Source: Gammaproteobacteria bacterium (GTDB lineage Bacteria > Pseudomonadota > Gammaproteobacteria > JASBUN01). Taken from it: a stretch of 64,000 nucleotides of DNA. Under the pieces are notes generated by a model, which did no database searches, had not been told where the DNA came from, and saw nothing but the letters and a program-made list of their open reading frames with translations. The position numbers were made by a program, and so were the translations under genes. Position 1 is the first letter of the stretch, and every line of letters begins with the position of its first letter. Shown piece by piece: positions 25,854-46,368 of the stretch. The stretch is taken from the NCBI GenBank assembly GCA_030147845.1, contig JASBUN010000022.1, forward strand, positions 6,152 to 70,151. Reading direction: 5' to 3'.

Positions 25854-27899
25854 TTGGGAGCTTTGCGCAGAGCGATGCAAGTAGACGTAATTCGTATCCT
25901 CCTGGTTGAAGACAACCCTGCTGACGCGCGGCTGGTCGAGTGGGCGTTGTCCGAGGTCGTCGGTTGCCGCTTCGACGTGATTCGAGCCGAGCGTCTTTCC
26001 GAGGCGTTGCAATGCCTCGATGGCCCGCGCTTCGACGCCATTCTGCTTGATCTATCACTGCCCGATTCTTTCGGCCTGGATACCATTTCGCAAATTGGGA
26101 TTGTTGCGCCAACCGTTCCGATCGTGGTGCTAAGCGGTCTACTGGACGACGAGCTTGCTTTTGAGGCCGTCAAGGGCGGTGCGCAGGACTATCTCGTCAA
26201 AGGTCAGGGCGACGGCTATTTGATCGCGCGTTCGGTTCGCTACGCGATGGAACGTAAGCGTGCCGAAGAGGCGTTGCGAGAGAGCGAGCGTATGCTCGAG
26301 CAGGCGCAACGCATCGCACACGTTGGACACTGGGTGTGGGATATCGCCTCGGGACATTTGTGCTGGTCCGACGAGGTATATCGGATCTATGGATATCAAC
26401 CGCAGGCTTTTACGCCGACGTACGAGCTGTTCCTTGCCGCTGTCGCGGTGGAAGACCGACAACGTATGGTGGACTCAATCGACGCTAGCTTGCGCGGTCG
26501 TGGACCGCTTGCGTTCGAGCACGGTATCGTGCGCACCGACGGTACACTTCGTACCGTCGAGGAGCGTGGCGAGATGGACTTTAATGCCGCCGGCAACCCG
26601 GTTCGCATGCGGGGCACGGTGCAGGATGTTACTACCTTTAAAGAAGTAGAGACTGAATTACGTCGCGCGCGCGATGATCTGGAACTCCGCGTCGAGGTTC
26701 GCACTGCGCATCTAGCCGAAGCCAACCGGCGCCTTGAGCATGAGGTTGTGCAGCGTACACGCACCGAGGAAATATTGCGTGGCGAACGCGACTTTATCGC
26801 CGCCGTTTTGGATACGGTCGGCGCACTAGTCGTTGTATTGGACGGCAAGGGGCGCATTATTCGATCCAATCGCGCCTGCGAGCAAACGACCGGTTACTCA
26901 TTCGAAGAAGTGCGCGGAAAGCCCGTCTGGGAGATATTTGTAGCGCCAGACGAGCGCCGCGGTGTGAAGCAGATATTCAATCAATTGTTGAACGTACGGT
27001 CGCCCAGCGAGTATCAAAATTACTGGGTTACCCGCAGTGGCGAAAGGCGCATGATCGCCTGGTCGAATACGGTATTACCGGCGCGCAATGGGGCCGCCGC
27101 GCATGTGATTGCAACCGGTATCGATATAACCGATCAGCGTAAGGCCGAGGAGCACGAGCGGCAGCGCATGCTGGAGTTGGCCCACGTCGGCCGCCTGAGC
27201 ACGATGGGCGAGATGGCTACGGAGATCGCCCACGAACTCAATCAGCCGTTGACCGCCATCGCGAGCTATAGCGATACGTGCAACCGTATTATGAAACTGC
27301 CGACCTGGAATGTGGATGAGGTACATGAAATTCTCGGAGAAATTTCCGGGCAAGCACATCGTGCCGGCGAAATCATTCGGCGCTTGCGAAGTTTTGCGCG
27401 TAAAGAAGACTCGCAACGTGCGTCAGTCGATGTCAACGAATTGGTCAAGGATATGGTCTACTTGACCGAGGCGGAGGCGCGCTGGCATGACGTGACCGTG
27501 TTACTCGAGCTGGCTGATCGCTTACCGTCGGTGGTAGCGGACCGAATATTGATCGAACAAGTAATGATCAACCTAGTGCGTAATGCTATTGATGTTTTAG
27601 GTAGCGATCAGTCCGTACAAAAGCGCGTGCTGGTGCAGACCTGGGTCAATGATCGAAATATGGTTGAGGTTGCGGTGAGTGACACTGGGCCTGGTTTGTC
27701 GGCCGACGCGGTGAAGCGAGTTTTCGAGCCATTTTACACAACCAAGTCCAGCGGTATGGGCATGGGTTTGTCCATCAGTCAATCCATTATTGAATCTCAC
27801 GATGGTGAACTATGGGTAACATCGCAGCCGGGACAGGGGGCGACCTTTGGTTTCGTGCTGCCTTTAGAGACGGAGGTGGAGGTCAGTAATGCGGTCTGA
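25854..27899 (+). CDS. Response-regulator-receiver / PAS / histidine kinase hybrid sensor (REC-PAS-PAS-HisKA-HATPase_c), FixL-like
   Basis: N-terminal REC (ILLVEDNPADARLV...ILLDLSLPD), PAS repeats, H-box EIAHELNQPLTAI, HATPase TGPGLSADAVKRVFEPFYTTK...GMGLSISQSII. Alternative ATG at 25875. Confidence 0.8.
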   Translation: MGALRRAMQVDVIRILLVEDNPADARLVEWALSEVVGCRFDVIRAERLSEALQCLDGPRFDAILLDLSLPDSFGLDTISQIGIVAPTVPIVVLSGLLDDELAFEAVKGGAQDYLVKGQGDGYLIARSVRYAMERKRAEEALRESERMLEQAQRIAHVGHWVWDIASGHLCWSDEVYRIYGYQPQAFTPTYELFLAAVAVEDRQRMVDSIDASLRGRGPLAFEHGIVRTDGTLRTVEERGEMDFNAAGNPVRMRGTVQDVTTFKEVETELRRARDDLELRVEVRTAHLAEANRRLEHEVVQRTRTEEILRGERDFIAAVLDTVGALVVVLDGKGRIIRSNRACEQTTGYSFEEVRGKPVWEIFVAPDERRGVKQIFNQLLNVRSPSEYQNYWVTRSGERRMIAWSNTVLPARNGAAAHVIATGIDITDQRKAEEHERQRMLELAHVGRLSTMGEMATEIAHELNQPLTAIASYSDTCNRIMKLPTWNVDEVHEILGEISGQAHRAGEIIRRLRSFARKEDSQRASVDVNELVKDMVYLTEAEARWHDVTVLLELADRLPSVVADRILIEQVMINLVRNAIDVLGSDQSVQKRVLVQTWVNDRNMVEVAVSDTGPGLSADAVKRVFEPFYTTKSSGMGMGLSISQSIIESHDGELWVTSQPGQGATFGFVLPLETEVEVSNAV

Positions 27900-28494
27900 A
27901 GCAACTATCTACATAGTCGACGACGATGAGGCAATAAGAAAGTCGTTGGCGTTGCTAATGAGGTCGGAAGGCTATCTGGCTAAGACTTGTTCATCGGCGC
28001 AGCAATTTCTAAAATCGTATGTCCCTGCTGTGCCGGCGTGCGTGGTGTTGGATGTGCGCATGCCGGGAATGAGTGGCATGGAACTACAGGACCTACTGAT
28101 AAAACGTGAAATTCATGTTCCAGTTATTATTATGACGGGACATGGTGATATTTCCATGGCTGTTAGAGCAATGAAAGCCGGCGCCTGCGATTTCATCGAG
28201 AAGCCGTTCGAGAACCAGCTATTGCTAGGACGTATCGAGGAGGCTCTCCATGACGCCATGGATGAATTGCGGCGCGACGGTGAGGCAGCTCATGCCCGTG
28301 AGCGTCTTGAGCTACTGACACCTCGAGAACGCGAGACGCTGGAACTGCTCGTTGTTGGTAAGCTCAACAAACAAGTCGCCTCTGATCTCAATATCAGCGT
28401 CCGTACGGTAGAGGCGCACCGAGCCAAAATCATGGAGAAGCTCGAGGTTCGCTCATTGTCCGAACTGGTTAGGCTTGCCTTGCTGGCGAACTGA
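27889..28494 (+). CDS. Two-component response regulator, FixJ/NarL (LuxR-type HTH) family
   Basis: REC domain IYIVDDDEAIRKSL...MPGMSG, C-terminal LuxR HTH LTPRERETLELLVVGKLNKQVASDLNISVRTVEAHR; overlaps the upstream kinase by 11 nt. Confidence 0.85.
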   Translation: MRSEATIYIVDDDEAIRKSLALLMRSEGYLAKTCSSAQQFLKSYVPAVPACVVLDVRMPGMSGMELQDLLIKREIHVPVIIMTGHGDISMAVRAMKAGACDFIEKPFENQLLLGRIEEALHDAMDELRRDGEAAHARERLELLTPRERETLELLVVGKLNKQVASDLNISVRTVEAHRAKIMEKLEVRSLSELVRLALLAN

Positions 28495-28803
28495 TCTGCC
28501 CATTCATCAAGTCTATAGGGGTTTACACGTACTAGCGTGTAATGCTCTTGTAACCATTCCGTAAGGTACCGCTCCCCGCCGTACTATCGCGCCTTTCCCG
28601 CGTGTCGTCCATGAACGGATGTTTCTTTTGCCGGTCTTTCGACCGATATCCGCCGTGTATTGGTAGAACTACGGATTTCGGCCCACCCCACACTGCCGTA
28701 TAACAACCCCAACATAGTGATCTGGCATCGCATAGTCATTGCACGGATTTTTGATTAAGCGAACGTTAGTGCCATCTATTTTCATCGAATCGAAAGGACT
28801 TCC

Positions 28804-29802
28804 ATGACTACGTTAAGCTCTGTTGAGACGAATAAGACCCAAGTAAAAATTCCCCGTGGATACGAAGCCGAAGATGAAGTCGAGTCAGCGGTCATTGATA
28901 CGCACGAGGATGTTTCGGAAGACGATGCGTCCGAAGAAGTGACGTATTCGGCCGACGAGGCTGATCTTGATGTCGAGCGGTTATATTTTCGCGAGGTAGG
29001 CCGACATCCGTTGCTTCGCGCCGACGATGAGGCGCGCCTCGGCAGGTTGGTACAAAATGGCGACATGGACGCCAGACAGCGTATGATCGAATGCAATCTG
29101 CGTTTAGTTGTGAAAATGGCGAGACGCTACGTATATCGCGGATTGCCGCTTATGGATCTTATTGAAGAAGGCAATCTCGGCTTGATTCGTGCGGTTGAAA
29201 AATTCGACCCTGAACGGGGATTCCGCTTCTCCACTTACGCCACATGGTGGATCCGCCAAGCCATGGAGCGGGCGATCATGAACCAGAGTCAGACTATTCG
29301 TATCCCGGTTCATGTGGAAAAAACCATTAGTCGTTATCAACGTACCGCATACCAACTCAGTCAAGCCAACGACCGGGAAGTCAAGCCGGAAGACATTGCA
29401 GACGCATTAGATGAGTCACCCGATAATGTCCGCTATCTGATGAGCTTGAAGGGCAAGGTCACGTCGCTGGAATCGTTCTCGGATGGCGATAATGGTCAGT
29501 CATTACTGGATGTCATTCCGGATGAAAGCTCTGGACCCGAGGAAACCTTGGCGGATGATGAAGAAAAGGGCGACATCGCGTTCTGGTTGTCACATTTGAA
29601 TAAGCGCGAACAAGAGGTGGTAGCTCGCCGGTTTGGGCTCGGCGGCCAGGACCGTGCTACGTTGGAAGAAATCGGTACCACTATCGGCATCAGTCGCGAG
29701 CGTGTACGTCAGGTGCAAAGCAGTGCCCTCAAGCGTCTTCGCGGTTTGATCGAAAGCGGCGTAGTGCCGCCGCGGCGTTCCGCAAACAGTATGGTTCGCT
29801 AG
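28804..29802 (+). CDS. rpoS: RNA polymerase sigma factor, sigma-70 family group 2 (RpoS-like)
   Basis: Acidic N-terminal region; region 2 ([37 protein letters not shown]) and regions 3-4 conserved; 332 aa, close to RpoS size. Confidence 0.6.
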
Positions 29803-29946
29803 TCCTCCAGCGCACGCTTTCTGCGTACAGTTGGGAATTTTTGCTGCGGCTCGCGCGTCTGGTGTTCTATGGCGGTATCTGTGGACCGACGTCCTCACAC
29901 CGACCGTGGTCGTCTGCTTCCGGCAGCGATCGTGAGCTGTCAGTAG

Positions 29947-31098
29947 ATGCGGCGGAGCAGGCTGAACATGCACGATCGGAGTTTACAATCGGGCGCACAT
30001 GACAATTCAGCGGAATGGTACATCTCGTTAGGCCAGTGGATTGAGGCCGTGCCCAACGCCGTAGTGGTTTCAAATTCGCGCGGAATCATCGTGCTATGCA
30101 ACCGTGAGATCGAGTCCCTGCTTGGTTATTCCACTAACGAGCTGGTGAACGAATCGATTGACCTACTCGTTCCGGAGCGCTTCCGCGCGGATCACGTACG
30201 GAAGCGCTCATCTTACTATGATGCTCCCGAATCTCGCCGTGTTGGGGAAGCGCGTCCGTTGTTTGCACGGCGTAAAGATGGTGCCGAGATAGCGGTCGAA
30301 ATCACGCTCAGTTCAGTCGACAGCGGAGGGAACATATTGGTCGTCAGTATGATCCGCGATGTTAGCGAGCGGACGCGATTTGAAGCCGCGTTGGAACAGC
30401 GAACGCGGCAATTGGAACAGTCCAATTTAGAACTTCAGCAGTTCGTTTACGCTGCGTCGCATTATCTCCAAGAACCACTGCGCATCATTACCGGCTACGC
30501 CAAACTGCTCGATCGTCGTTATCGGGAATATTTTCAGGCCGACGGCCGCGAATTTATCGAATTCATTGTCGATGGCACCGCGCGCATGCAAGAGCTAATC
30601 GACGACTTGATGGAATTTTCTCGTATTGGGACGCGCGCCAAGCCGTCCATACCGGTGCGATTGTCGGACGCAGTCGAGCAGGTGATAAGCGGGCTCCGGC
30701 CTGCTATTGAGGAATCTGGCGCGACCATATCAACGGATGAGGGCAGGATGTCTGTAATTGCAGACGAAGCGCAACTGGTACAAGTTCTGCGTAACTTGAT
30801 ATCCAATGCGCTAAAATTTCGCCGCCGCGAGCCGCCGGTGGTGACGGTCTCCTGGCTACAGCAGGGCGATCAGGTCATCGTATCGGTGGCCGATAATGGT
30901 ATCGGTATAGAATCTCGACACCACGTTCGAATTTTTCAATTGTTTCAGAAGCTACATACGAAACGCGAATATCCGGGTACCGGCATGGGTCTCGCCATCT
31001 GCAAAAGGATTGTCGAACGCCATGGCGGGCGTATTTGGGTGACAAGTGATCCCGGGAAAGGCGCTACGTTTCAGTTCTCCCTGCCGGTCGTGAGTTGA
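29947..31098 (+). CDS. PAS-domain sensor histidine kinase
   Basis: PAS, H-box AASHYLQEPLR, HATPase VADNGIGIE...GTGMGLAICKRIVERHGGRIWV. Confidence 0.8.
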   Translation: MRRSRLNMHDRSLQSGAHDNSAEWYISLGQWIEAVPNAVVVSNSRGIIVLCNREIESLLGYSTNELVNESIDLLVPERFRADHVRKRSSYYDAPESRRVGEARPLFARRKDGAEIAVEITLSSVDSGGNILVVSMIRDVSERTRFEAALEQRTRQLEQSNLELQQFVYAASHYLQEPLRIITGYAKLLDRRYREYFQADGREFIEFIVDGTARMQELIDDLMEFSRIGTRAKPSIPVRLSDAVEQVISGLRPAIEESGATISTDEGRMSVIADEAQLVQVLRNLISNALKFRRREPPVVTVSWLQQGDQVIVSVADNGIGIESRHHVRIFQLFQKLHTKREYPGTGMGLAICKRIVERHGGRIWVTSDPGKGATFQFSLPVVS

Positions 31099-31229: not shown

Positions 31230-33377
31230 TTACGCAGCGCCGAGCGTATCGCTTTCGCACGTCAGTGCGGGATGACGCATACCGTGCGGAAAGTCGTCGG
31301 CCGGGCAGGCGGGACAGAGGAAATTGCCCTGCCCCTGGTCGCAGCCCTGGTCGCGTAACATTTCCAGTTGTCGCCTATTCTCAACGCCCTCGGCGATGAC
31401 GCGCATGCCAAGACTTTTGGCCATTGAAACGATGGCAATTGCGATCTGTGCGCCATCATCGCCGGGAAGGTCGCGGACAAAGGATTTGTCGATTTTCAGA
31501 CCATGTATTGGTAGATGTCGCAGTACGCTCAGTGACGAATGGCCGGTTCCGAAATCGTCGACGGTTACGGCTATTCCCATATTGCCGAGAGAGCGTAGCG
31601 CTGTGGCGGCTTGTTCGAGATTATCCATGACCGCGCTTTCAGTCACTTCTAACTCAAGTAGCGTCGGCTCCATATCAGTTTCGCGTACGATTTGTTGTAT
31701 TCTCGATAAAAGATTATCTTGACCAAGTTGGATGGGGGACAGATTGACACTGATGCGAAGCTCGCGCTTACCTTCTTTTTTCCATTGGGCACGCTGTTTA
31801 CAGGCCGTACGTATCGCCCATTCGCCGACTTGAACAATCAATCCCGTTTCCTCCAGGATAGGCACAAAATCTTGCGGCGCCACGAGTCCGTGAGCAGGAC
31901 GAGACCAGCGAATCAACGCTTCGCATCCAGACATGCCGCCTGTCTTTAGATCGAATTGTGGCTGATAGTAGAGCACGAACTCCTCACGTTCGACCGCTCG
32001 GTGCAGTGCTTGCTCAAGCTGCCGACGTTCGTCTAGATGAGCGTTCATGTCATTGCGATAAAATTGATAAGTATTTTTACCGCGCTCTTTCGCCGCGTAC
32101 ATGGCAACGTCGGCATTTTTTAGCAACTGTTCCGGGCTGGAGCCGTCATCAGGAAAACAGCTGATGCCGATGCTGCATGTCACGTAGACTTCTTCGCTAC
32201 CGATGACAACGGGCTGGGAAAGATTATGTAAAACTTTTTCCGCCACCATTGCTGCCTCATCGACCGAAGACATACGATCAATAATAGCAATGAATTCATC
32301 GCCACCGAGACGCGCGGCGACATCATGTTCGCGGATACAGTGGCGCAGCCGTTTGCCGATCGAGTTCAATAGAGCGTCGCCGACATCGTGGCCCATGGTA
32401 TCGTTGATGAATTTGAAGCGATCCAAATCAAGAAACATTACCGCCGACATCGGCCGTTCGGAATCGGGTCTGCGCCGTATGATGTCGCGCAGACGTGTTT
32501 CTAACAAATTGCGGTTCGGGAGGCCGGTTAGTGTGTCGAAATGGGCCATTTTAGCCAGGCGCTGCTCGGCCTCTTTATGGGCGCTGACGTCAACCATAAC
32601 CCCGCGCAGCTGTATCGGACGCGAGTGCTCGTCACGCACTACCCGGATGGTATCGCGAATCCAGATAAACCGATCCTCGGCGTGACGCGCGCGATATACG
32701 ATGGATTGGCTTTCGCGATTCTCCAGTACCTTGCTATAAACTTCCATGCTGTACTGCCGGTCCTCGGGATGTATCAGATTGGAGAGAAAATTCCGGTCGT
32801 CGTGCCATTGTTCGACTTGATAGCCTAAGATGTTTTCGGCTTGCTGGCTGACGAAGGAAAATTGCTGATCCAGGACGTCATATTCCCAGACCACGGCGTC
32901 GAGCCCTTGAACGAGGTCATAGAATCGCTTCTCAGAGGCCATCGCTGATCGTCGAAGGGCTTCGCGTTGCTGCATTATTTCGACGTTTTTCTCGTATAAG
33001 TCGACGAATACCATCACTTTGGAGCACAACACTTCGGGCATAACCGGCTTGACCATATAGTCGACCGCACCGACTTCATAGCCCTTGAATACGTATGTGT
33101 CTTCGGCGCTTTTCCCGGTGAGAAAAATGATGGGAGTCCGATAAGATCGGCGCCTTTCACGAATTAATGCCGCGGTCTCGAAGCCGTCGAGACCAGGCAT
33201 CTTCACGTCGAGAATGATCAGCGCGAATTCATATTCGAGTACTTTTCGAAGCGCTTCCTCGCCCGAGGTGACCGTCATAATACGTGGCCCGAGCTTTTCG
33301 AGCAGCGCAGACAACGCAGCCGCGCCGGACGGATCGTCATCGACGATTAAAATACAAGTATCGTTCAAGCGCGGCAT
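31230..33377 (-). CDS. Response-regulator-receiver / PAS / GGDEF / EAL protein (c-di-GMP cyclase/phosphodiesterase)
   Basis: N-terminal REC (ILIVDDDPSGA...ILDVKMPGLDG), PAS, GGDEF (RLGGDEFIAII), EAL (CEALIRW ... DDFGTGHSSL). Start is 25 nt downstream of the giant kinase stop on the same strand. Confidence 0.85.
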   Translation of the reverse strand: MPRLNDTCILIVDDDPSGAAALSALLEKLGPRIMTVTSGEEALRKVLEYEFALIILDVKMPGLDGFETAALIRERRRSYRTPIIFLTGKSAEDTYVFKGYEVGAVDYMVKPVMPEVLCSKVMVFVDLYEKNVEIMQQREALRRSAMASEKRFYDLVQGLDAVVWEYDVLDQQFSFVSQQAENILGYQVEQWHDDRNFLSNLIHPEDRQYSMEVYSKVLENRESQSIVYRARHAEDRFIWIRDTIRVVRDEHSRPIQLRGVMVDVSAHKEAEQRLAKMAHFDTLTGLPNRNLLETRLRDIIRRRPDSERPMSAVMFLDLDRFKFINDTMGHDVGDALLNSIGKRLRHCIREHDVAARLGGDEFIAIIDRMSSVDEAAMVAEKVLHNLSQPVVIGSEEVYVTCSIGISCFPDDGSSPEQLLKNADVAMYAAKERGKNTYQFYRNDMNAHLDERRQLEQALHRAVEREEFVLYYQPQFDLKTGGMSGCEALIRWSRPAHGLVAPQDFVPILEETGLIVQVGEWAIRTACKQRAQWKKEGKRELRISVNLSPIQLGQDNLLSRIQQIVRETDMEPTLLELEVTESAVMDNLEQAATALRSLGNMGIAVTVDDFGTGHSSLSVLRHLPIHGLKIDKSFVRDLPGDDGAQIAIAIVSMAKSLGMRVIAEGVENRRQLEMLRDQGCDQGQGNFLCPACPADDFPHGMRHPALTCESDTLGAA

Positions 33378-33401
33378 CCAAAGTATCCTCGGTTATTTAT
33401 T

Positions 33402-36400
33402 TTATTGTACCGGCCGGCGAAGCCACACGCGCAGCAACGCTAGCAGCTGCGCAACATCAATGGGCTTTGCCATGTAGTCAGATGCACCCGCTTCAATGCA
33501 CTTTTCCCTGTCGCCCTTCATGGCCTTGGCGGTGATTGCGATCATCGGTAGATGTTCAAAGTTGTCCAGCGAGCGAATGGCCCGCATGGTATCGTAGCCA
33601 TCCATATCGGGCATCATCACGTCCATTAGTACGACATCGATGCTAGGATTGCTTTTAAGCATAGTGACGGCGTCGTTGCCGTTTTCCGCGTATACCACTT
33701 CCATTTCCTGCTCTTCCAGTACACAGGTCAGCGAAAAAATGTTGCGTATGTCATCGTCGACGATGAGCGCTTTTTTCCCGGATAGCACGTGGTCGGTATG
33801 ACTGAGTTGCCTGATCATATCCTGCTTATCCGGGAGCATTTTGCTTACCGGGACGTGCATGAGGAGAGCAGTCTCACTGACCAGCCGCGCCGGAGAGCTG
33901 GCGTCCTTGGTGATCACCGATTCAGCGTGGTCCCACAAAGCGCTTCGGTCGGCCTGGTTTAACTCCTTTGCCGTGTAGATGATCATCGGCACCGATTTCA
34001 ACTTCTTATTTTCGCGTAGCGCCTTTAGTAGCTCCAGCCCGTCCATATCCGGTAAGGTAAGATCGATCACAATACAATCGTAGCTTTTTGTTCGCAGTGC
34101 TTGAATGGCGTCCGCGGCGGTTCCTACTCCTTCGGCGACCGTTTGATTAGCAGTTAACAAGGAACTGAGGTATTCGCGTTGAATATCTTGATCTTCAATG
34201 ATCAAAATCCGCCGCTCGGCGCGCTCGTAAAGCGCTTTTAGATTTTTGAGTATACTAGCAATCTCCGCTTTACCAGCCTTTTTCCGAGTGCATCCCGCAG
34301 CGCCTTTCATGAGGCCACGCGGAATGTTGGTACGAGTGGAAATCATCTGCACGGGAATGTGCCTCTTTGCCAGATCGTGCTTGAAAAGATCGAGCACGGC
34401 CCAGCCGTCCATGTCGCTGATGCTTGAGTTGAGAAAAATTGCCGATATCACGTACTTGGCGGACAGCGACAGGGCTGCGGTACCGGTCCATGCGATAAGG
34501 ACTTTCATGCCGAGCGTATGAGCTATAGTTCGGACCTTTTCACAAAATTCTTTATCGCCATCGATAATAAGAAGAACGGTGTCGCCATCACGCAGCGAGG
34601 TACGGTCGTCTGCCGGTATGTCGTCGTGTTCGATGCGAAGCTCCGGTGCCTCGACCGTTTCTTCTATGACGATGTCACGGGCGGACGAAAATGCCGATTG
34701 CACGTCTACGTGCGTACTATTTCCCGTAATCAATGGCAAAAACAATGTGAAGGTGCTCCCTTGATTAGGCGCGCTGGTTACGGTCAGCTCACCACCCAGT
34801 CGGCGTGCGATCTCTCGGCTAATGGACAGTCCAAGCCCGGTACCGCCGTATTTACGGCTGGTGGTGCCATCGGCCTGCTGAAAGGCTTCAAAGATAATCA
34901 TTTGTTTGTCGGCCCGAATGCCGATACCGGTGTCCGATACCGCAAATGCAACGATCGAATCGGCCGATTTCAGAATTTCATTGTCTGCGGACCAACCATG
35001 CGATGCCAATTCCATACGCAGACTGACGGAGCCTTTTTCGGTAAATTTGAAGGCGTTGGAAAGCAGATTTTTAAATATTTGCTGTAGTCGTTTGGCGTCG
35101 GTCTGGATTGTAGGCGGCAAGCGATTGTCGATCTTGATGGAAAAATCGAGTTGCTTGTCATGAGCGAGTTGCCGAAAGGTGCGCTCGACATAGTCGCGCA
35201 TGTCTTCGAAGCGTTCATTGCCCATTTCCAGCGTAAACGTGCCCGACTCGATTTTGGAAAGATCAAGAATGTCGTTGATCAGTGCCAGTAGATCTGATCC
35301 GGCCGAATGGATCGTCTTGGCAAATTCCACTTGCTTGGGTTGCAAATTGTTGGCCGGGTTGTCGGAAAGCAGGCGCGCCAAGATCAGCAAACTGTTTAAG
35401 GGAGTCCGAAGTTCGTGCGACATATTGGCCAAAAATTCGGATTTGTACTTGGAAGCCAGCGCCAGCTGCTCGGCTTTTTCTTCCAACGCAACCTTGGCCA
35501 GTTCGACCTCGCGGTTTTTCAACTCCACCTGTGCTTTCTGTTCAGATAGCAGACGGGCTTTCTCTTCCAGCTCGCTATTGGTCGTTTGCAACTCTTCCTG
35601 TTGCGCCTTTAACAATTCCTCCGACTTACGAAGATTTTCGGCTTGCTGTTCCAGCCGATCATTCGTGTTTTTGAGCTCCTGCTGCTGACTTTGCAGTTCC
35701 GCCGTGAGCGACTGCGATTGTGTAAGAAGATCCTCCGTACGCATATTGGCTTCGATGGTATTCAATACGATGCCAATACTCTCCATGAGTTGGTCGAGAA
35801 ATGATTGATGGGTTTCGCTGAAGGCGCCAAACGAGGCCAGTTCGATTACAGCTTTTACTTCGCCTTCAAACAGCACCGGCATGACAATAATATTGCGCGG
35901 CGTGCTTTCACCGAGACCGGAGTGGATCTTGACGTAGTCGCTCGGCACCTTATCCATGAAAACACGTTTCTTTTCGTAGGCGCACTGACCGATAAGTCCT
36001 TCTCCGAGCTGAAAGCGATTCGGAACCGCATTCTTGCCCTTATAGGCATAGGAGGCCTGCAATTCCAGCGCCGCTTCTTTGCCATAGACTTTAGTGATAT
36101 AGAATACGCCGTGCTGTGCGTTCACCAACGGTGCGAGTTCCGATAGCACCAAGCGGCAGACGGTCAGCAGGTCGCGCTGTCCCTGCAGCATTTTGGTAAA
36201 TTTGGCGACGTTCGTCTTGAGCCAATCCTGTTCGGTATTTTTTAACGTCGTTTCGCGCAGGTTACTGATCATCTCGTTGATGTTGTCTTTCAACGAGGCG
36301 ACTTCACCGGAGGCCTGTACGGTGATGGAACGCGTCAAGTCGCCCTTGGTCACCGCAGTGGCGACTTCGGCGATGGCGCGAACCTGTGTGGTGAGGTTGG

Positions 36401-38966
36401 CGGCAAGCTGATTGACGTTGTCGGTCAGGTCGCGCCACAGGCCAGCGGCGCCCGGCACCTTGGCTTGTCCGCCGAGTTTTCCTTCGATACCGACTTCACG
36501 CGCGACGTTGGTTACCTGGTCTGCAAACGTCGCTAGCGTATCGATCATGCCGTTGATCGTGTCGGCCAGGGCGGCGATCTCGCCTTTCGCTTCCACCGCC
36601 AACTTGCGCTTCAAGTCACCATTGGCCACGGCGGTCACGACGTCGGCGATGCGTCGTACTTGGTTGGTCAAGTTGGCGGCCATGGAGTTTACGTTGTCGG
36701 TCAGATCTTTCCAGATGCCGCCGACACCGAGAACGTTGGCTTGGCCGCCGAGCTTGCCTTCGGTGCCGACCTCGCGCGCCATGCGCGTAACTTCCGAGGC
36801 GAACGACCCGAGCTGATCGACCATGGTGTTGATGGTGTTCTTGAGCTCCAGAATTTCGCCCTTTACGTCCACCGTGATTTTTTTGGAGAGATCGCCGCGC
36901 GCCACTGCCGTGGTTACGTCGGCTATATTGCGCACCTGTCCGGTCAGGTTGCTGGCCATGGCGTTGACGTTGTCGGTTAAATCTTTCCATGTGCCTGCGA
37001 CGCCACGCACTTGCGCCTGTCCGCCGAGCTTGCCTTCGGTGCCGACTTCACGCGCGACACGTGTCACTTCCGAAGCAAACGAGTTGAGCTGATCGACCAT
37101 GGTGTTGATGGTGCTCTTCAGCTCCAGAATTTCGCCCTTTACATCCACTGTGATTTTTTTGGAGAGGTCACCGCGCGCTACCGCCGTGGTCACTTCGGCG
37201 ATGTTACGCACCTGACCGGTCAGATTTCCGGCCATGGAGTTGACGTTATCAGTGAGGTCCTCCCAGATCCCATCCACGCCGGGAACGTTGGCCTGTCCAC
37301 CCAATTTGCCTTCGGTGCCGACTTCGCGCGCTACGCGTGTGACCTCCGAGGCGAACGAATTGAGCTGGTCCACCATCGTATTGATGGTGTTTTTCAATTC
37401 CAGGATTTCACCTTGGACATCGACCGTGATTTTCTTCGATAAATCGCCACGCGCCACGGCGGTGGTTACATCAGCGATGTTGCGCACTTGGCCGGTAAGG
37501 TTGCGCGCCATGGCGTTAACGTTATCGGTCAGGTCCTTCCACGTCCCGGCGACGCCACGCACCTCCGCCTGTCCGCCGAGCTTGCCGTCGGTACCCACTT
37601 CGCGCGCAACACGCGAGACTTCAGACGCGAATGAGCTGAGCTGATCCACCATCGTATTGATGGTATTTTTTAGCTCCAGAATTTCGCCTTTCACGTCTAC
37701 CGTGATTTTTTTTGATAAATCGCCGCGTGCCACGGCGGTGGTCACATCGGCGATGTTACGTACCTGACCGGTGAGGTTGCCGGCCATGGAATTGACGTTA
37801 TCGGTCAGGTCTTTCCAGGTGCCGCCGACGCCGGCGACGTTGGCTTGGCCACCGAGTTTGCCCTCCGTGCCGACTTCGCGCGCAACGCGCGTGACTTCCG
37901 AGGCGAAGGAATTGAGCTGGTCGACCATCGTGTTGATGGTGTTCTTCAATTCGAGAATTTCGCCTTTGACGTTGACGGTGATTTTTTTCGACAGATCGCC
38001 GCGCGCCACGGCGGTGGTCACATCGGCGATGTTACGCACCTGCGATGTCAGATTGGCGGCCATCGAGTTGACATTGTCGGTAAGGTCTTTCCAGATGCCG
38101 CCCACGCCGCGCACGTCGGCTTGGCCGCCGAGTTTGCCTTCGGTGCCGACTTCGCGCGCGACGCGCGTGACTTCCGAGGCGAACGAGCCGAGCTGGTCGA
38201 CCATCGTATTAATGGTGCTTTTCAACTCCAGAATTTCGCCTTTGACGTCGACCGTGATTTTCTTCGACAAATCGCCGCGCGCCACCGCAGTGGTGACCTC
38301 GGCGATATTGCGCACTTGATCACGCAGATTGGCGGCCATCAAATTTACGCTGTCGGTGAGATCCTTCCAGGTGCCGGCCACACCCTTGACCTTGGCTTGC
38401 CCGCCGAGCTTACCTTCGGTACCGACTTCGCGCGCGACGCGGATGGTTTCCGTAGTGAAGGAGTTGAGCTGATCAGCCATGGCATTGACCACTTTGCCGA
38501 TGCGCAGAAACTCACCTTGGAGTGGATAGCCGTCGATTTCCAGTTGCATGCGCTGACTCAGGTCACCCTTGGCCACCGCGCCGATAACGCGCGACATTTC
38601 ACTGGTCGGTTTGACCATGTCGCTGATGAGGTTGTTGATGGAATCGATGCCATCGGCCCATGCGCCGGTGACGTTACCGATGCGCGCGCGCTGTGAGATC
38701 ATGCCCTGCTTGCCGACCACGAGGCTGACGCGCGCCAGCTCTTTGCCCATCATATCGTTGAGTTCGACGACATCGTTGAAGGCGTCCGCCAGTTCCTGGC
38801 CCAGAGCGGAGTCGGTACTCGGCATATGGACCGAGAAGTCGCCGCGCTTGAGTGCTTTGAGCGCTCTGAGTAACTGGCGGGCGTGGTTTGCATCGACGCC
38901 GGCTGATTCGCTGAAATGCGTTGCCAACTCGGCCTGGGCGGTGGCACTCAGGTCTTCTCGTGTCAT
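33402..38966 (-). CDS. Giant soluble hybrid sensor histidine kinase: poly-HAMP array (about 10 HAMP-like units including eight 92-aa tandem repeats) - GAF - coiled coil - HisKA - HATPase_c - three receiver domains
   Basis: 1854 aa with no TM segment. Eightfold repeat [18 protein letters not shown]...[59 protein letters not shown] domain ([13 protein letters not shown]). H-box [12 protein letters not shown]. HATPase VSDTGIGI...[22 protein letters not shown] domains ([10 protein letters not shown]..., [10 protein letters not shown]... and one degenerate). Confidence 0.85.
36190..38440 (-). repeat. About eight tandem 276-bp (92-codon) repeats inside the giant kinase CDS, roughly 85-90% nucleotide identity by eye
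   Basis: Recurrent DNA blocks such as GAGCTGATCGACCATGGTGTTGATGGTG...CAGAATTTCGCCCTTTAC...GTGATTTTTTTGGAGAG/CGACA. This also produces long antisense ORFs in the track (for example 36412..38696 +). Confidence 0.8.
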
Positions 38967-39249: not shown

Positions 39250-39319
39250 TTTTTTGCCGAGGGACCCGCCCATCCAAGTGTATGTTTTTTGCCGAGGGAC
39301 CCGCCCATCCAAGTGTATG
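39250..39319. repeat. Perfect 35-bp tandem direct duplication TTTTTTGCCGAGGGACCCGCCCATCCAAGTGTATG x2 in a divergent promoter region
   Basis: Exact repeat read directly, between the giant kinase start (38966, minus) and the uup start (39474, plus). Confidence 0.9.
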
Positions 39320-39473
39320 CGCTGTTTGACGCAGAGCGATGGGTTTCGCAATGTCAACGTGGGTCGACCCGCAACGTTGGGGTGGGCGTGCCCCGGCGCA
39401 CATGGTATTCGAGGTATAATGCTCCGTTGCAGCGCCGACCCGGCGCTCCGGCCTGATCGGAAAGCTTGTCTCT

Positions 39474-44148: not shown

Positions 44149-44239
<91 letters not shown>

Positions 44240-44443: not shown

Positions 44444-44564
<121 letters not shown>

Positions 44565-44715
44565 AAGCCGGCCCAGGCCTGCAATAATCAATGACTTGCC
44601 GTGATTCGCGCCGGTTTGGGCTGCGGTAACGGTTTCTCGCCAGCAGTGTTTCCGATATCATTTCCCGATCTGTTTGAAGCGCCCCGCGAGCCGTTCTGGA
44701 GAGTATTCCAATATC

Positions 44716-46368
44716 ATGAGCTATCAGGTGTTGGCCCGAAAATGGCGCCCACGCAATTTCGGTGAGATGGTCGGTCAGGAGCATGTGCTGCGTGCCCTGG
44801 TCAATGCGCTGGACCATGACCGTCTGCACCACGCGTTCTTGTTTACCGGTACGCGCGGGGTGGGCAAGACCACGATTGCGCGTATCTTGGCCAAATCACT
44901 CAACTGCGAGGCAGGCGTGAGTTCGTCGCCATGCGGCCGGTGTTCCTCTTGCTGCGAGATCGACGAGGGACGTTTTGTCGATCTCATCGAGGTCGACGCC
45001 GCTTCGCGCACCAAGGTCGAGGACACGCGCGAGCTGTTGGAGAATGTGCAATACGCGCCCAGCCGTGGACGCTACAAGGTCTATCTGATCGACGAAGTGC
45101 ATATGCTTTCCGATCACAGCTTCAATGCTTTGCTGAAGACGCTCGAAGAACCACCGCCACACGTTAAATTCTTGTTGGCGACTACGGATCCGCAAAAACT
45201 GCCGATTACGATTTTGTCGCGGTGTCTGCAGTTCAGTCTCAAGCGCCTGCCGATACGATTGATCGCCGATCACCTGACCGAGATCATGCGGCGTGAAGAG
45301 ATCGCTGCCGATGCGCCAGCGCTGCAAGAGATCGCGCGCGCGGCTGACGGCAGCATGCGTGACGCTCTCAGTCTGCTCGATCAGGCCATTGCCCACGGTG
45401 GCGGTCGCGTTGTTGATCAGGATGTGCGCGACATGCTCGGCACCATCGAGCGCGGCCAGGTTTTCGATCTGCTGCATGCGCTGGCCGCCAGTGACGGCCA
45501 GGCTGTGTTGGAGGTGGTCGAGACGCTGGCGCAGCAGGCGCCGGATTTCGAAGCCGTGTTGGCGGAGCTGACTTCGGTGTTGCATCGGGTGGCAGTCGCG
45601 CAAGCAGTACCCGGCGCAGTGGACGACAGCCTCGGCGACGCCGATGCAGTGCGCAAACTGGCCGGCCTGGTCGGCGCCGAAGATCTGCAATTGTTTTATC
45701 AGATCGCATTGATCGGCCGCCGCGATCTGCCGTTGGCGCCGGATCCGCGCAGTGGATTGGAAATGGTGTTGCTGCGCATGTTGGCCTTCCGCCCCAGCGC
45801 GATGCCGGGTCCGGCGCTGACGTCGGCAGTGGAACAAAACGCCGCGCGCAATTCCGCTGTGGCCACGCCGGCGGCCTCGCCAAGCCGGACGCCAAGCCGG
45901 ACGCCAAGCGCACGTCCGGCGCCCGTCGAGGCGAAGCACCCCGCGCCATTGTCATCGTCAGCGCCAGCGGCGGCGCCATTGAGCGAAACGAGCGATGAGT
46001 GGGGCGGCATTGTCGCCGCCCTCGGATTACGCGCGGCGGCGCGCGAGTTGGCGGTCAATTGCGCGCTCGTAAGTCGCGACGACAAGCGTATTGTGCTGGC
46101 GCTCGATCCGGTGCACGAGCAACTGGCCGGCAACAACGTACGTCAGCGCTTGGAGCAGGCCTTGCAACAGCATTTCAATGCACCGATCAAGCTCGATATC
46201 ACGATTACCAAACCGGATGCTGAAACGCCGGCGACGCGCCGGGCGCGATTGCAGGACGAGCGACACCAGGCTGCGGTGCAGTCCATAGAGGACGACGCTG
46301 TGGTCAAAAATCTACGTGACGTATTCAATGCTGAGGTCCGGCCGGACCTGATTCAGCCGGTTGATTGA
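44716..46368 (+). CDS. dnaX: DNA polymerase III subunit tau/gamma
   Basis: [24 protein letters not shown] Walker A, zinc module [13 protein letters not shown], Pro/Ala/Ser-rich linker. 550 aa from the ATG at 44716. Confidence 0.9.

Follow-up and report, generated by a model that had tools for sequence, protein, structure and literature searches.

A poly-HAMP hybrid histidine kinase of the AskA type paired with a receiver-PAS-GGDEF-EAL protein in a gammaproteobacterial genome

A 64,000-nucleotide (nt) stretch of a gammaproteobacterial genome (assembly GCA_030147845.1, contig JASBUN010000022.1, positions 6,152 to 70,151 of the forward strand; here called the window) encodes a soluble poly-HAMP hybrid histidine kinase followed directly by a response regulator with GGDEF and EAL domains, the enzymes of cyclic di-GMP (c-di-GMP) turnover. 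The kinase itself is an ordinary member of a large, described and structurally characterised family. What is new here is its partner: the pair is a narrow output variant of the usual two-gene module of this family, in which c-di-GMP enzymes replace the second kinase. The kinase most likely controls the receiver of its cognate partner and would thereby shift the balance between c-di-GMP synthesis and breakdown.

The gene pair and the lineage of the partner receiver

The kinase gene occupies 33402..38966 on the minus strand, the strand of all kinase and partner features given below, and encodes 1854 amino acids (aa). Its designation as a soluble, AskA-type poly-HAMP hybrid kinase draws on the open reading frame (ORF), the Pfam matches, an alignment to the crystal structure 9trk and the lack of a transmembrane segment. 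The partner gene (31230..33377) encodes a response regulator of 715 aa with the order receiver (REC), PAS, GGDEF and EAL, identified from its ORF, from Pfam and from a gap-free, 77% identical ortholog beside a related kinase. The coordinates and lengths of both ORFs are exactly those given in an earlier sequence-only reading of this DNA. That reading placed the kinase stop 25 nt from the next start; the genes are indeed tightly adjacent, but the spacer between the stop and the next ATG (33378..33401) is 24 nt long and contains a GAGGA ribosome-binding site. A consensus scan of the minus strand revealed no terminator-like site between kinase and partner. Promoter and terminator consensus scans at the locus scored at background level, and an Rfam scan near the pair gave no matches.

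The only close relative of the pair lies in the gammaproteobacterial metagenome-assembled genome MFD01721.bin.1.106. Its kinase (1948 aa) is 83% identical to the window kinase, and its partner, 11 nt downstream, also has 715 aa and aligns without gaps at 77% identity. However, the flanks are wholly unlike: the relative has IF2, PNPase and thiolase genes upstream and cytochrome c' and PqiAB genes downstream, whereas the window has genes for an ABC-F ATPase, a phosphopantetheinyl transferase (PPTase) and DnaX upstream and for a convergent PAS kinase and an RpoS-like sigma factor downstream. Since the pair is intact between entirely different flanks, kinase and partner travel as a unit.

The earlier description of the downstream protein as a receiver-GGDEF-EAL protein was confirmed by Pfam, which matched REC, PAS_3, GGDEF and EAL. 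The receiver (aa 9-121; 33015..33353), assigned to the AskC-like partner type by its tblastn identity to downstream receivers of the family, keeps VDDD, Asp57 in ILDVKMPG, the Thr in FLTG and the Lys in VKP. It is followed by a PAS domain (aa 152-264, with PAS_3 at 175-261; 32586..32924). The GGDEF domain (aa 278-435; 32073..32546; Pfam E=5.3e-50) has intact RxxD (REHD) and GGDEF motifs, and the EAL domain (aa 456-689; 31311..32012; Pfam E=4.1e-71) has intact EAL, NLS, ExTE, DDFGTG, KID, EGVE and QG motifs, both as read from an alignment with 4rnh. This structure belongs to the bifunctional MorA of Pseudomonas aeruginosa (4rnh, 4rnf), the closest solved GGDEF-EAL tandem, with which the partner has the catalytic motifs in common and to which (4rnh) its GGDEF and EAL domains align with E=5.9e-121 over aa 273-696. 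In contrast to the window partner, the solved MorA fragment is without an N-terminal receiver, and five residues before GGDEF it has QDDT in place of the RxxD motif REHD. The partner is thus predicted to be catalytically competent for both the GGDEF and the EAL reaction.

As reported, AskC of Myxococcus xanthus is a receiver-containing kinase, its gene lies directly downstream of askB, and its receiver is bound by Rec3 of AskA (PMC7643160). The gene downstream of askB has the same receiver type as the gene downstream of the window kinase; in contrast, AskC carries a histidine-kinase core, while the window partner has PAS-GGDEF-EAL instead, without HisKA or HATPase. A neighbourhood survey covered 80 retrieved loci of related kinases, with 60 immediate downstream ORFs. 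Among these ORFs, receivers were found in 35, HisKA in 31, HATPase in 30, CheR in 12 and GGDEF/EAL in one, and the usual partner, where examined, is a receiver fused to (PAS or GAF)-HisKA-HATPase, as in AskC.

With partner residues 1-135 as the tblastn query, the receivers just downstream of the family kinases matched at a median of 53% identity and 134 bits (54 loci). In contrast, the medians were 29% and 50 bits for the kinases' own receivers and 34% and 54 bits for other receivers in the flanks, and the few strong matches elsewhere were located a short way further downstream or close to the kinase on its upstream side, in some cases on the opposite strand. A partner-type receiver, called at a tblastn match of at least 100 bits, is present within 1.8 kb downstream of the kinase in 65 of the 80 loci. 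The window itself contains no second receiver of this type, its other receivers being 28-31% identical to that of the partner. Moreover, receiver, linker and PAS form one contiguous block (aa 9-275) with 35-40% identity to the partner REC-PAS-kinases in 15 loci. Collectively, these comparisons indicate that the partner receiver shares descent with the AskC-type downstream receivers of the family, and they are most simply explained if the cognate partner retained its receiver and PAS domain and swapped its kinase core for GGDEF-EAL. The 24-nt gap, the pair kept between other flanks in the relative and the presence of this receiver lineage in 65 of 80 loci make a functional link between the two genes plausible.

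Besides the window, locus L002, that of the 83% identical relative, was the only surveyed locus with a downstream GGDEF-EAL partner. A different arrangement occurs in two Oxalobacteraceae, Noviherbaspirillum malthae (L057, 6064-7899) and Massilia sp. YIM B04103 (L058, 5989-7932), where a REC-GGDEF-EAL gene that lacks PAS immediately precedes the kinase gene in the same orientation. Both receivers are of the partner type and share 42-49% identity with that of the window; in N. malthae, the GGDEF-EAL part has 42% identity to that of the window partner. This arrangement is apparently a second, independent coupling of poly-HAMP kinases to c-di-GMP enzymes. A protein search with receiver residues 1-152, which is not a census, yielded mostly short fragments, and the listed matches had PAS, HisKA or HisKA_3 and never GGDEF/EAL, in agreement with the locus survey. 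In about 12 of the 60 loci, genes for CheR and a receiver-less CheB methylesterase stand between the kinase and its REC-kinase partner (for example L011, 11778-13210, and L017, 11679-13201), an arrangement suggestive of reversible, chemoreceptor-like methylation of the soluble kinases or of their partners. The window has no CheR/CheB pair.

The kinase, its HAMP array and its family

The HAMP array of the window kinase starts after only 27 residues, and no input domain lies upstream of it. The first HAMP, of D1 type (approximate boundaries aa 28-75; 38742..38885), aligns with the first HAMP of the AskA structure. It is followed by a diverged di-HAMP module, non-canonical plus canonical, which was delimited by the 9trk alignment (about aa 76-175, with Trp103; 38442..38741) and has 59% identity to a regular unit (tblastn). 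Next come eight exact 92-aa di-HAMP modules, that is, 16 HAMPs (aa 176-911; 36234..38441), established from the register, Tandem Repeats Finder (TRF) and identity matrices. The units start at aa 176, 268, 360, 452, 544, 636, 728 and 820 in exact register, and TRF detected the corresponding 276-nt period in the gene. Each unit consists of a non-canonical HAMP and then a canonical HAMP, so that the proposed HAMP/divergent-HAMP pairing is borne out. In contrast, the earlier count of about 10 HAMP-like units was too low, because the array comprises the D1 HAMP and nine di-HAMP modules, 19 HAMPs in all. Of the eight near-identical repeats described before, all eight exist in exact register, but near-identity is confined to units 1-6 (87-95% protein identity to one another), while unit 7 is 67-74% and unit 8 57-60% identical to the other units.

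Pfam matched the kinase with HAMP (E=3.8e-87, nine stretches) and HAMP_2 (E=9.5e-80). When the repeat units were checked against the HAMP profile, their canonical halves passed with 39.7 and 34.4 bits against the Pfam cut-off of 25, whereas the non-canonical halves gave no match and the D1 HAMP alone reached 14.8 bits. Passing canonical halves and failing non-canonical halves are the pattern expected for group C. The HAMP status of the non-canonical halves and of D1 follows from the solved AskA array, since aa 28-307 align gap-free to the 6-HAMP crystal structure 9trk (E=3.5e-117); the kinase also matches the 4-HAMP structure 9trj (E=9e-67). Additionally, Trp residues stand at aa 103, 200, 292, 384, 476, 568, 660, 752 and 844, with no other Trp in aa 1-911. 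These nine residues, one per non-canonical HAMP, match the conserved interface Trp of kinase-type arrays (PMC13446029). For the Gly conserved at HAMP-HAMP junctions of such arrays, candidates are the glycines of GKLGGQA and the second Gly of GVxGxW (G-V/A-x-G-x-W), none of which varies among the eight regular units; the first Gly of the latter motif is present in seven of the eight and is Asp in unit 5. Partial Pfam matches to SpoIIID, HTH_6 (RpiR), GatB_Yqey and DUF1759 also fall inside the HAMP units, and no stretch passes alone. As reported, matches of the SpoIIID-like and HTH_6 type were read as DNA-binding motifs in AskA and AskB (PMC7643160); in the window kinase they look like repeat-amplified artefacts.

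The kinase-associated poly-HAMP family (AskA/AskB type, the bacterial "class III" hybrid histidine kinases) has been defined by soluble proteins whose array begins with a D1 HAMP and alternates between non-canonical (group C) and canonical (group D) HAMPs, followed by a GAF domain, DHp/CA and at least one receiver (PMC13446029). The window kinase is soluble and has D1 plus C-D2 modules, the interface Trp and the order GAF-DHp-CA-receiver. Owing to the gap-free alignment to the AskA structures 9trk and 9trj, the D1/C-D2 layout and the Trp in all nine non-canonical HAMPs, we assign it to this family.

Of the family members, AskA (MXAN_0712), AskB (MXAN_6735) and AskC (MXAN_6734) of M. xanthus have published genetics and biochemistry, in which AskA/AskB with AskC govern development as well as the responses to ambruticin and glycerol (PMC7643160), and the 4- and 6-HAMP segments of AskA have been crystallised (9trj and 9trk, respectively; PMC13446029). 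Amb07 of Sorangium cellulosum is of the same kinase-associated poly-HAMP type (PMC7643160, PMC13446029). The description of such kinases as uncharacterised was therefore only partly fair, although bacterial poly-HAMP members are still called functionally poorly characterised (PMC13446029). Similar to the window kinase, AskA and AskB are soluble, with D1, near-identical C-D2 modules, GAF, DHp/CA and three receivers. They differ in HAMP number (21 in AskA and 31 in AskB, against 19) and in that the window kinase has lost the acceptor Asp of receiver 1; between the window genes there is no CheR/CheB pair. Moreover, the window host is gammaproteobacterial and, unlike the Ask and Amb07 systems, unconnected with ambruticin or the development of fruiting bodies.

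The proposed kinship with the fungal group III kinases agrees with the literature, which states it for the poly-HAMP family (PMC13446029, PMC7643160). The fungal proteins (Nik1/Os-1/TcsC) are soluble, have N-terminal 92-aa HAMP/divergent-HAMP pairs and thus show the same array type, for which a common origin was suggested (PMC13446029); this likeness is taken from the literature. In contrast, they are eukaryotic, their arrays are shorter and their output is not c-di-GMP. Their signalling runs via an HPt protein, Ypd1 (PMC6433957). Both its bacterial context and the lack of an HPt domain in either window protein argue for the window kinase being a homologue, not a member, of this fungal group. 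In fungi, the Ypd1 branch of the group III kinases feeds the high-osmolarity glycerol (HOG) MAP-kinase pathway. A further comparison, with Aer2-type arrays, did not hold: the NCBIfam Aer2 model NF041847 gave 222.3 bits against a cut-off of 1200, and the kinase has no PAS or MCP domain. Aer2 of Pseudomonas aeruginosa and Vibrio is likewise soluble, with concatenated canonical and divergent HAMPs and Pfam HAMP_2 matches. However, it has five diverse HAMPs around a haem-PAS domain and a methyl-accepting output, and as "multi-HAMP" it has been set apart from poly-HAMP arrays (PMC13446029).

Kinases of this kind had been called rare and of unusual size. A search of 5.8 billion proteins with the window kinase gave 8000 scored candidates, all of which, among the matches listed, had E<=1e-10. 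Relatives are present in at least 597 species genomes of the one-genome-per-species GTDB set (597 of 600 pattern matches confirmed), and an exhaustive HMMER scan, with aa 28-307 as query against representatives clustered at 50% identity, recovered 4975 clusters at E<=1e-10, 1342 of them at E<=1e-30. The kinases are thus not rare. Nor is the length exceptional, as the best 120 matches (3750-5220 bits) are mostly 2000-2900 aa long, longer than the query, which itself ranked 74th. These matches belong to Acidobacteriota, Verrucomicrobiota, Planctomycetota, Myxococcota, Gemmatimonadota and Proteobacteria. In the 80 loci, leaving aside two ORFs without the GKLGG motif, the number of regular modules, counted by this motif, has a median of 9 and a range of 4-13; the window kinase has 8.

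Outside the array, Pfam gave the order GAF_2, HisKA, HATPase_c and three Response_reg stretches, confirming the architecture read earlier, with the coiled coil presumed. The absence of a membrane anchor also held, the highest 19-residue Kyte-Doolittle mean being 1.57, inside the GAF domain. The GAF domain (aa 931-1068; 35763..36176; GAF_2 E=3.8e-19, GAF E=9.8e-11) is connected to the DHp domain by a helical linker free of Pro and Gly, read from the sequence and presumed to be a coiled coil (about aa 1076-1170; 35457..35741). The kinase core (34731..35444) comprises, by Pfam, HisKA (aa 1175-1242, with His1184) and HATPase_c (aa 1290-1412), and the H-box His is invariant in all members of an alignment of 78 family members. 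Receiver 1 (about aa 1456-1580; 34227..34601) is degenerate in this alignment, with Asn1513 in place of the acceptor Asp. Receiver 2 (about aa 1581-1715; 33822..34226), placed by Pfam Response_reg and its key residues, has Asp1635, Thr1665 and Lys1687, and receiver 3 (about aa 1730-1850; 33417..33779; best Pfam REC stretch 1734-1845) has Asp1782, Thr1812 and Lys1834.

Across the 78 family members, the acceptor of receiver 2 is Asp in 62, and Asp, Thr and Lys of receiver 3 are invariant. The acceptor of receiver 1 is Asp in 73, Lys in two Cellvibrionaceae and Asn only in the window, L002 and L059 (a further metagenome-assembled genome), all of which are Gammaproteobacteria. Because the acceptor Asp is kept in most of the family and is Asn in the window and two gammaproteobacterial relatives, receiver 1 is a lineage-specific pseudo-receiver.

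The regions of the kinase differ strongly in conservation. Compared with L002, the eight regular modules have 99.2% aa identity (730/736) and the coiled coil between GAF and DHp 100% (95/95), in contrast to 88.6% in DHp and CA, 65.6% in receiver 1, 71.1% in receiver 2 and 84.9% in receiver 3, the best conserved of the three receivers. The DNA has nevertheless diverged, as about 48% of the codons for identical residues differ in the eight modules and about 56% in the coiled coil. Each window module has a clear ortholog with 97-100% protein and 80-86% DNA identity, whereas paralogous modules (units 1-6) have 87-95% protein identity. Within one protein, the modules differ by 5-13%, and the last two by 26-43%. 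The kinase of MFD01721.bin.1.106 has exactly one extra 92-aa module, whose DNA identity to the neighbouring units does not exceed 88%. A recent amplification or gene conversion of the repeats was considered and rejected, because codon position 3 is only 53.9% identical among window modules 1-6 (positions 1 and 2, 93.4%) and orthologous units match across genomes. Since synonymous sites have diverged while orthologous modules remain 97-100% identical in protein, the repeats are old and owe their near-identity to purifying selection on the protein, with each position of the rod keeping its own identity. Collectively, the stronger purifying selection on the rod and coiled coil than on the catalytic core indicates that the sequence of the array, and not just its length, is functionally constrained.

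Control of the partner by the kinase and competing explanations

Control of the partner by the kinase most likely proceeds as follows. The kinase, presumably a soluble dimer, would relay a conformational signal along its rod of 19 alternating HAMPs by axial helix rotation, as in published structures and models, and then through the GAF domain and the coiled coil to the DHp/CA core. The candidate sites of signal input are the rod itself and the GAF domain. The kinase would set the phosphorylation of Asp57 of the partner, either directly from His1184 or via receiver 2 or 3, and the state of Asp57 would shift the balance of c-di-GMP synthesis and hydrolysis in a direction that we can only infer. 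A known system follows similar logic. The cyclase activity of CfcR of Pseudomonas putida, a REC-GGDEF-EAL protein, needs phosphorylation of Asp65 and the hybrid GAF kinase CfcA; unlike the window kinase, CfcA is a multi-sensor CHASE3/GAF kinase and not poly-HAMP (PMC6849547).

Several observations weigh against this control. Hybrid kinases usually phosphorylate their own receiver, after which an HPt protein is required. In the window lineage, the acceptor Asp of receiver 1 is lost, so the internal relay differs from that in most of the family. The intact GGDEF and EAL motifs leave the dominant activity of the partner undefined. For the nearest published pair, AskA and AskC, the evidence is of binding (two-hybrid, microscale thermophoresis, surface plasmon resonance and pull-down) and not of phosphotransfer (PMC7643160). 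Finally, a GGDEF-EAL partner is present in only three of the 80 loci, and 71 metagenome loci with GGDEF-EAL relatives (<=46% identity) contained neither a poly-HAMP kinase nor a partner-type receiver; these two counts are also the reason why we call the pair a narrow variant.

A multistep phosphorelay, in which the kinase's own receiver 2 or 3 would pass the phosphoryl group to an unlinked HPt protein and from there to the partner and/or other regulators, with the partner as one branch only, is a possible but doubtful alternative. It would account for the three receivers after the kinase core and the invariant Asp, Thr and Lys of receiver 3 (78/78), and the fungal group III kinases, which have the same array type, signal via the HPt protein Ypd1 (PMC6433957). 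However, Pfam scans found no HPt domain in the kinase or partner, in nine neighbouring window ORFs or in the 60 ORFs directly downstream of related kinases, and the conserved adjacency of one receiver lineage fits a direct cognate pair more simply. The missing HPt also bears on the earlier prediction of a dedicated route to c-di-GMP: with the 24-nt gap and the pair kept in the relative, a functional link is plausible, but the word dedicated is unsupported, neither protein having an HPt domain.

Alternatively, receiver 3 may dock onto the partner receiver and control GGDEF/EAL allosterically in a stable complex, without phosphotransfer, which we regard as unlikely. This would agree with reports that AskA Rec3 interacts with the AskC receiver in a two-hybrid assay and that the full-length proteins bind each other in the micromolar range (PMC7643160), as well as with the conservation of receiver 3 between the two genomes (85%, against 66% and 71%) and its invariant key sites. 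In contrast, the partner receiver retains the full phospho-acceptor set (DD, D57, T and K), which argues for phosphorylation; binding and phosphotransfer are, in addition, not mutually exclusive.

Much less probable is a DNA-associated regulator, as proposed for AskB/AskA at the mrpC promoter, with the GGDEF-EAL gene co-transcribed but functionally separate. Binding of AskB and AskA to promoter DNA has been observed in vitro (PMC7643160), and the same partial SpoIIID and HTH_6 matches recur in the window HAMP units. However, these matches are without a passing stretch and overlap helices that form HAMP bundles in the AskA crystals (PMC13446029), the 27 N-terminal residues are acidic rather than basic, and the relative keeps the two genes together in other genomic surroundings. 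Chance adjacency, with another kinase serving the partner, is the most improbable of all: other two-component genes do lie at 25854-31098 on the opposite strand, with two PAS kinases within 6 kb, but the pair is kept with different flanks in the relative, and the partner receiver belongs to a lineage tied to poly-HAMP kinases in 65 of 80 loci and is 28-31% identical to other window receivers. Control of the partner receiver by the adjacent kinase thus remains the reading that we prefer.

Genomic surroundings and significance

The pair is approached from downstream by a signalling-gene cluster on the plus strand (25854-31098). It encodes two kinases, one with REC-PAS-PAS-HisKA-HATPase (681 aa) and one with PAS-HisKA-HATPase. 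A NarL-type REC-GerE regulator gene overlaps that of the former by 11 nt, and the cluster also includes an RpoS-like sigma factor, which scores 378 bits where the NCBIfam RpoS cut-off is 394. A partner-type receiver is absent from all of these genes. In particular, the 681-aa REC-PAS-PAS kinase (25854-27899) was rejected as a displaced AskC-like partner, since its receiver matches the partner receiver with 36 bits and 31% identity.

Upstream of the kinase, a 507-nt intergenic region contains two tandem copies of ACATACACTTGGATGGGCGGGTCCCTCGGCAAAAAA (35/36 nt; 0 and 1 mismatch; window 39250-39320, minus-strand reading), of which none would be expected by chance. They stand directly before a promoter-like TTAACA-17-TATTTT (39242-39214). 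The tandem has no counterpart upstream of the related kinase in L001, and a comparison of the kinase upstream region with that of the relative gave no alignment and no common regulatory element. Further along, a tRNA (44149-44236) and a small bacterial signal recognition particle RNA (44456-44552) lie on the plus strand just upstream of dnaX (44674-46368). The G+C content changes from about 0.50-0.55 at 1-36 kb, which includes the 3' half of the kinase gene and the partner gene, to about 0.57-0.61 at 36-64 kb, and that of the HAMP array is higher than that of the remainder of the kinase gene.

The fungicides fludioxonil and ambruticin act via the fungal class III kinases, and the input signal of poly-HAMP (class III) kinases is unresolved in both bacteria and fungi. 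Most bacterial members have a further kinase as their output, whose own target is unknown, which makes the pathway hard to read out. In contrast, a c-di-GMP-linked partner gives a measurable output, namely the nucleotide level, biofilm formation and motility, and could report signals that act on the array. A more far-reaching interpretation, which we put forward tentatively and consider rather improbable, is that the rod, rather than relaying passively, would act as a sensor or scaffold with a position code, every di-HAMP module having a conserved identity of its own, and that with its receiver rewired to c-di-GMP the pair would be the first class III member with a simple enzymatic read-out. 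Otherwise, the locus is an ordinary one, adding one more two-component pair that feeds c-di-GMP signalling in an uncultured gammaproteobacterium. If the position-coded sensor and the rewiring are real, however, the pair would offer a route to the long-sought input signal of the class III kinases.

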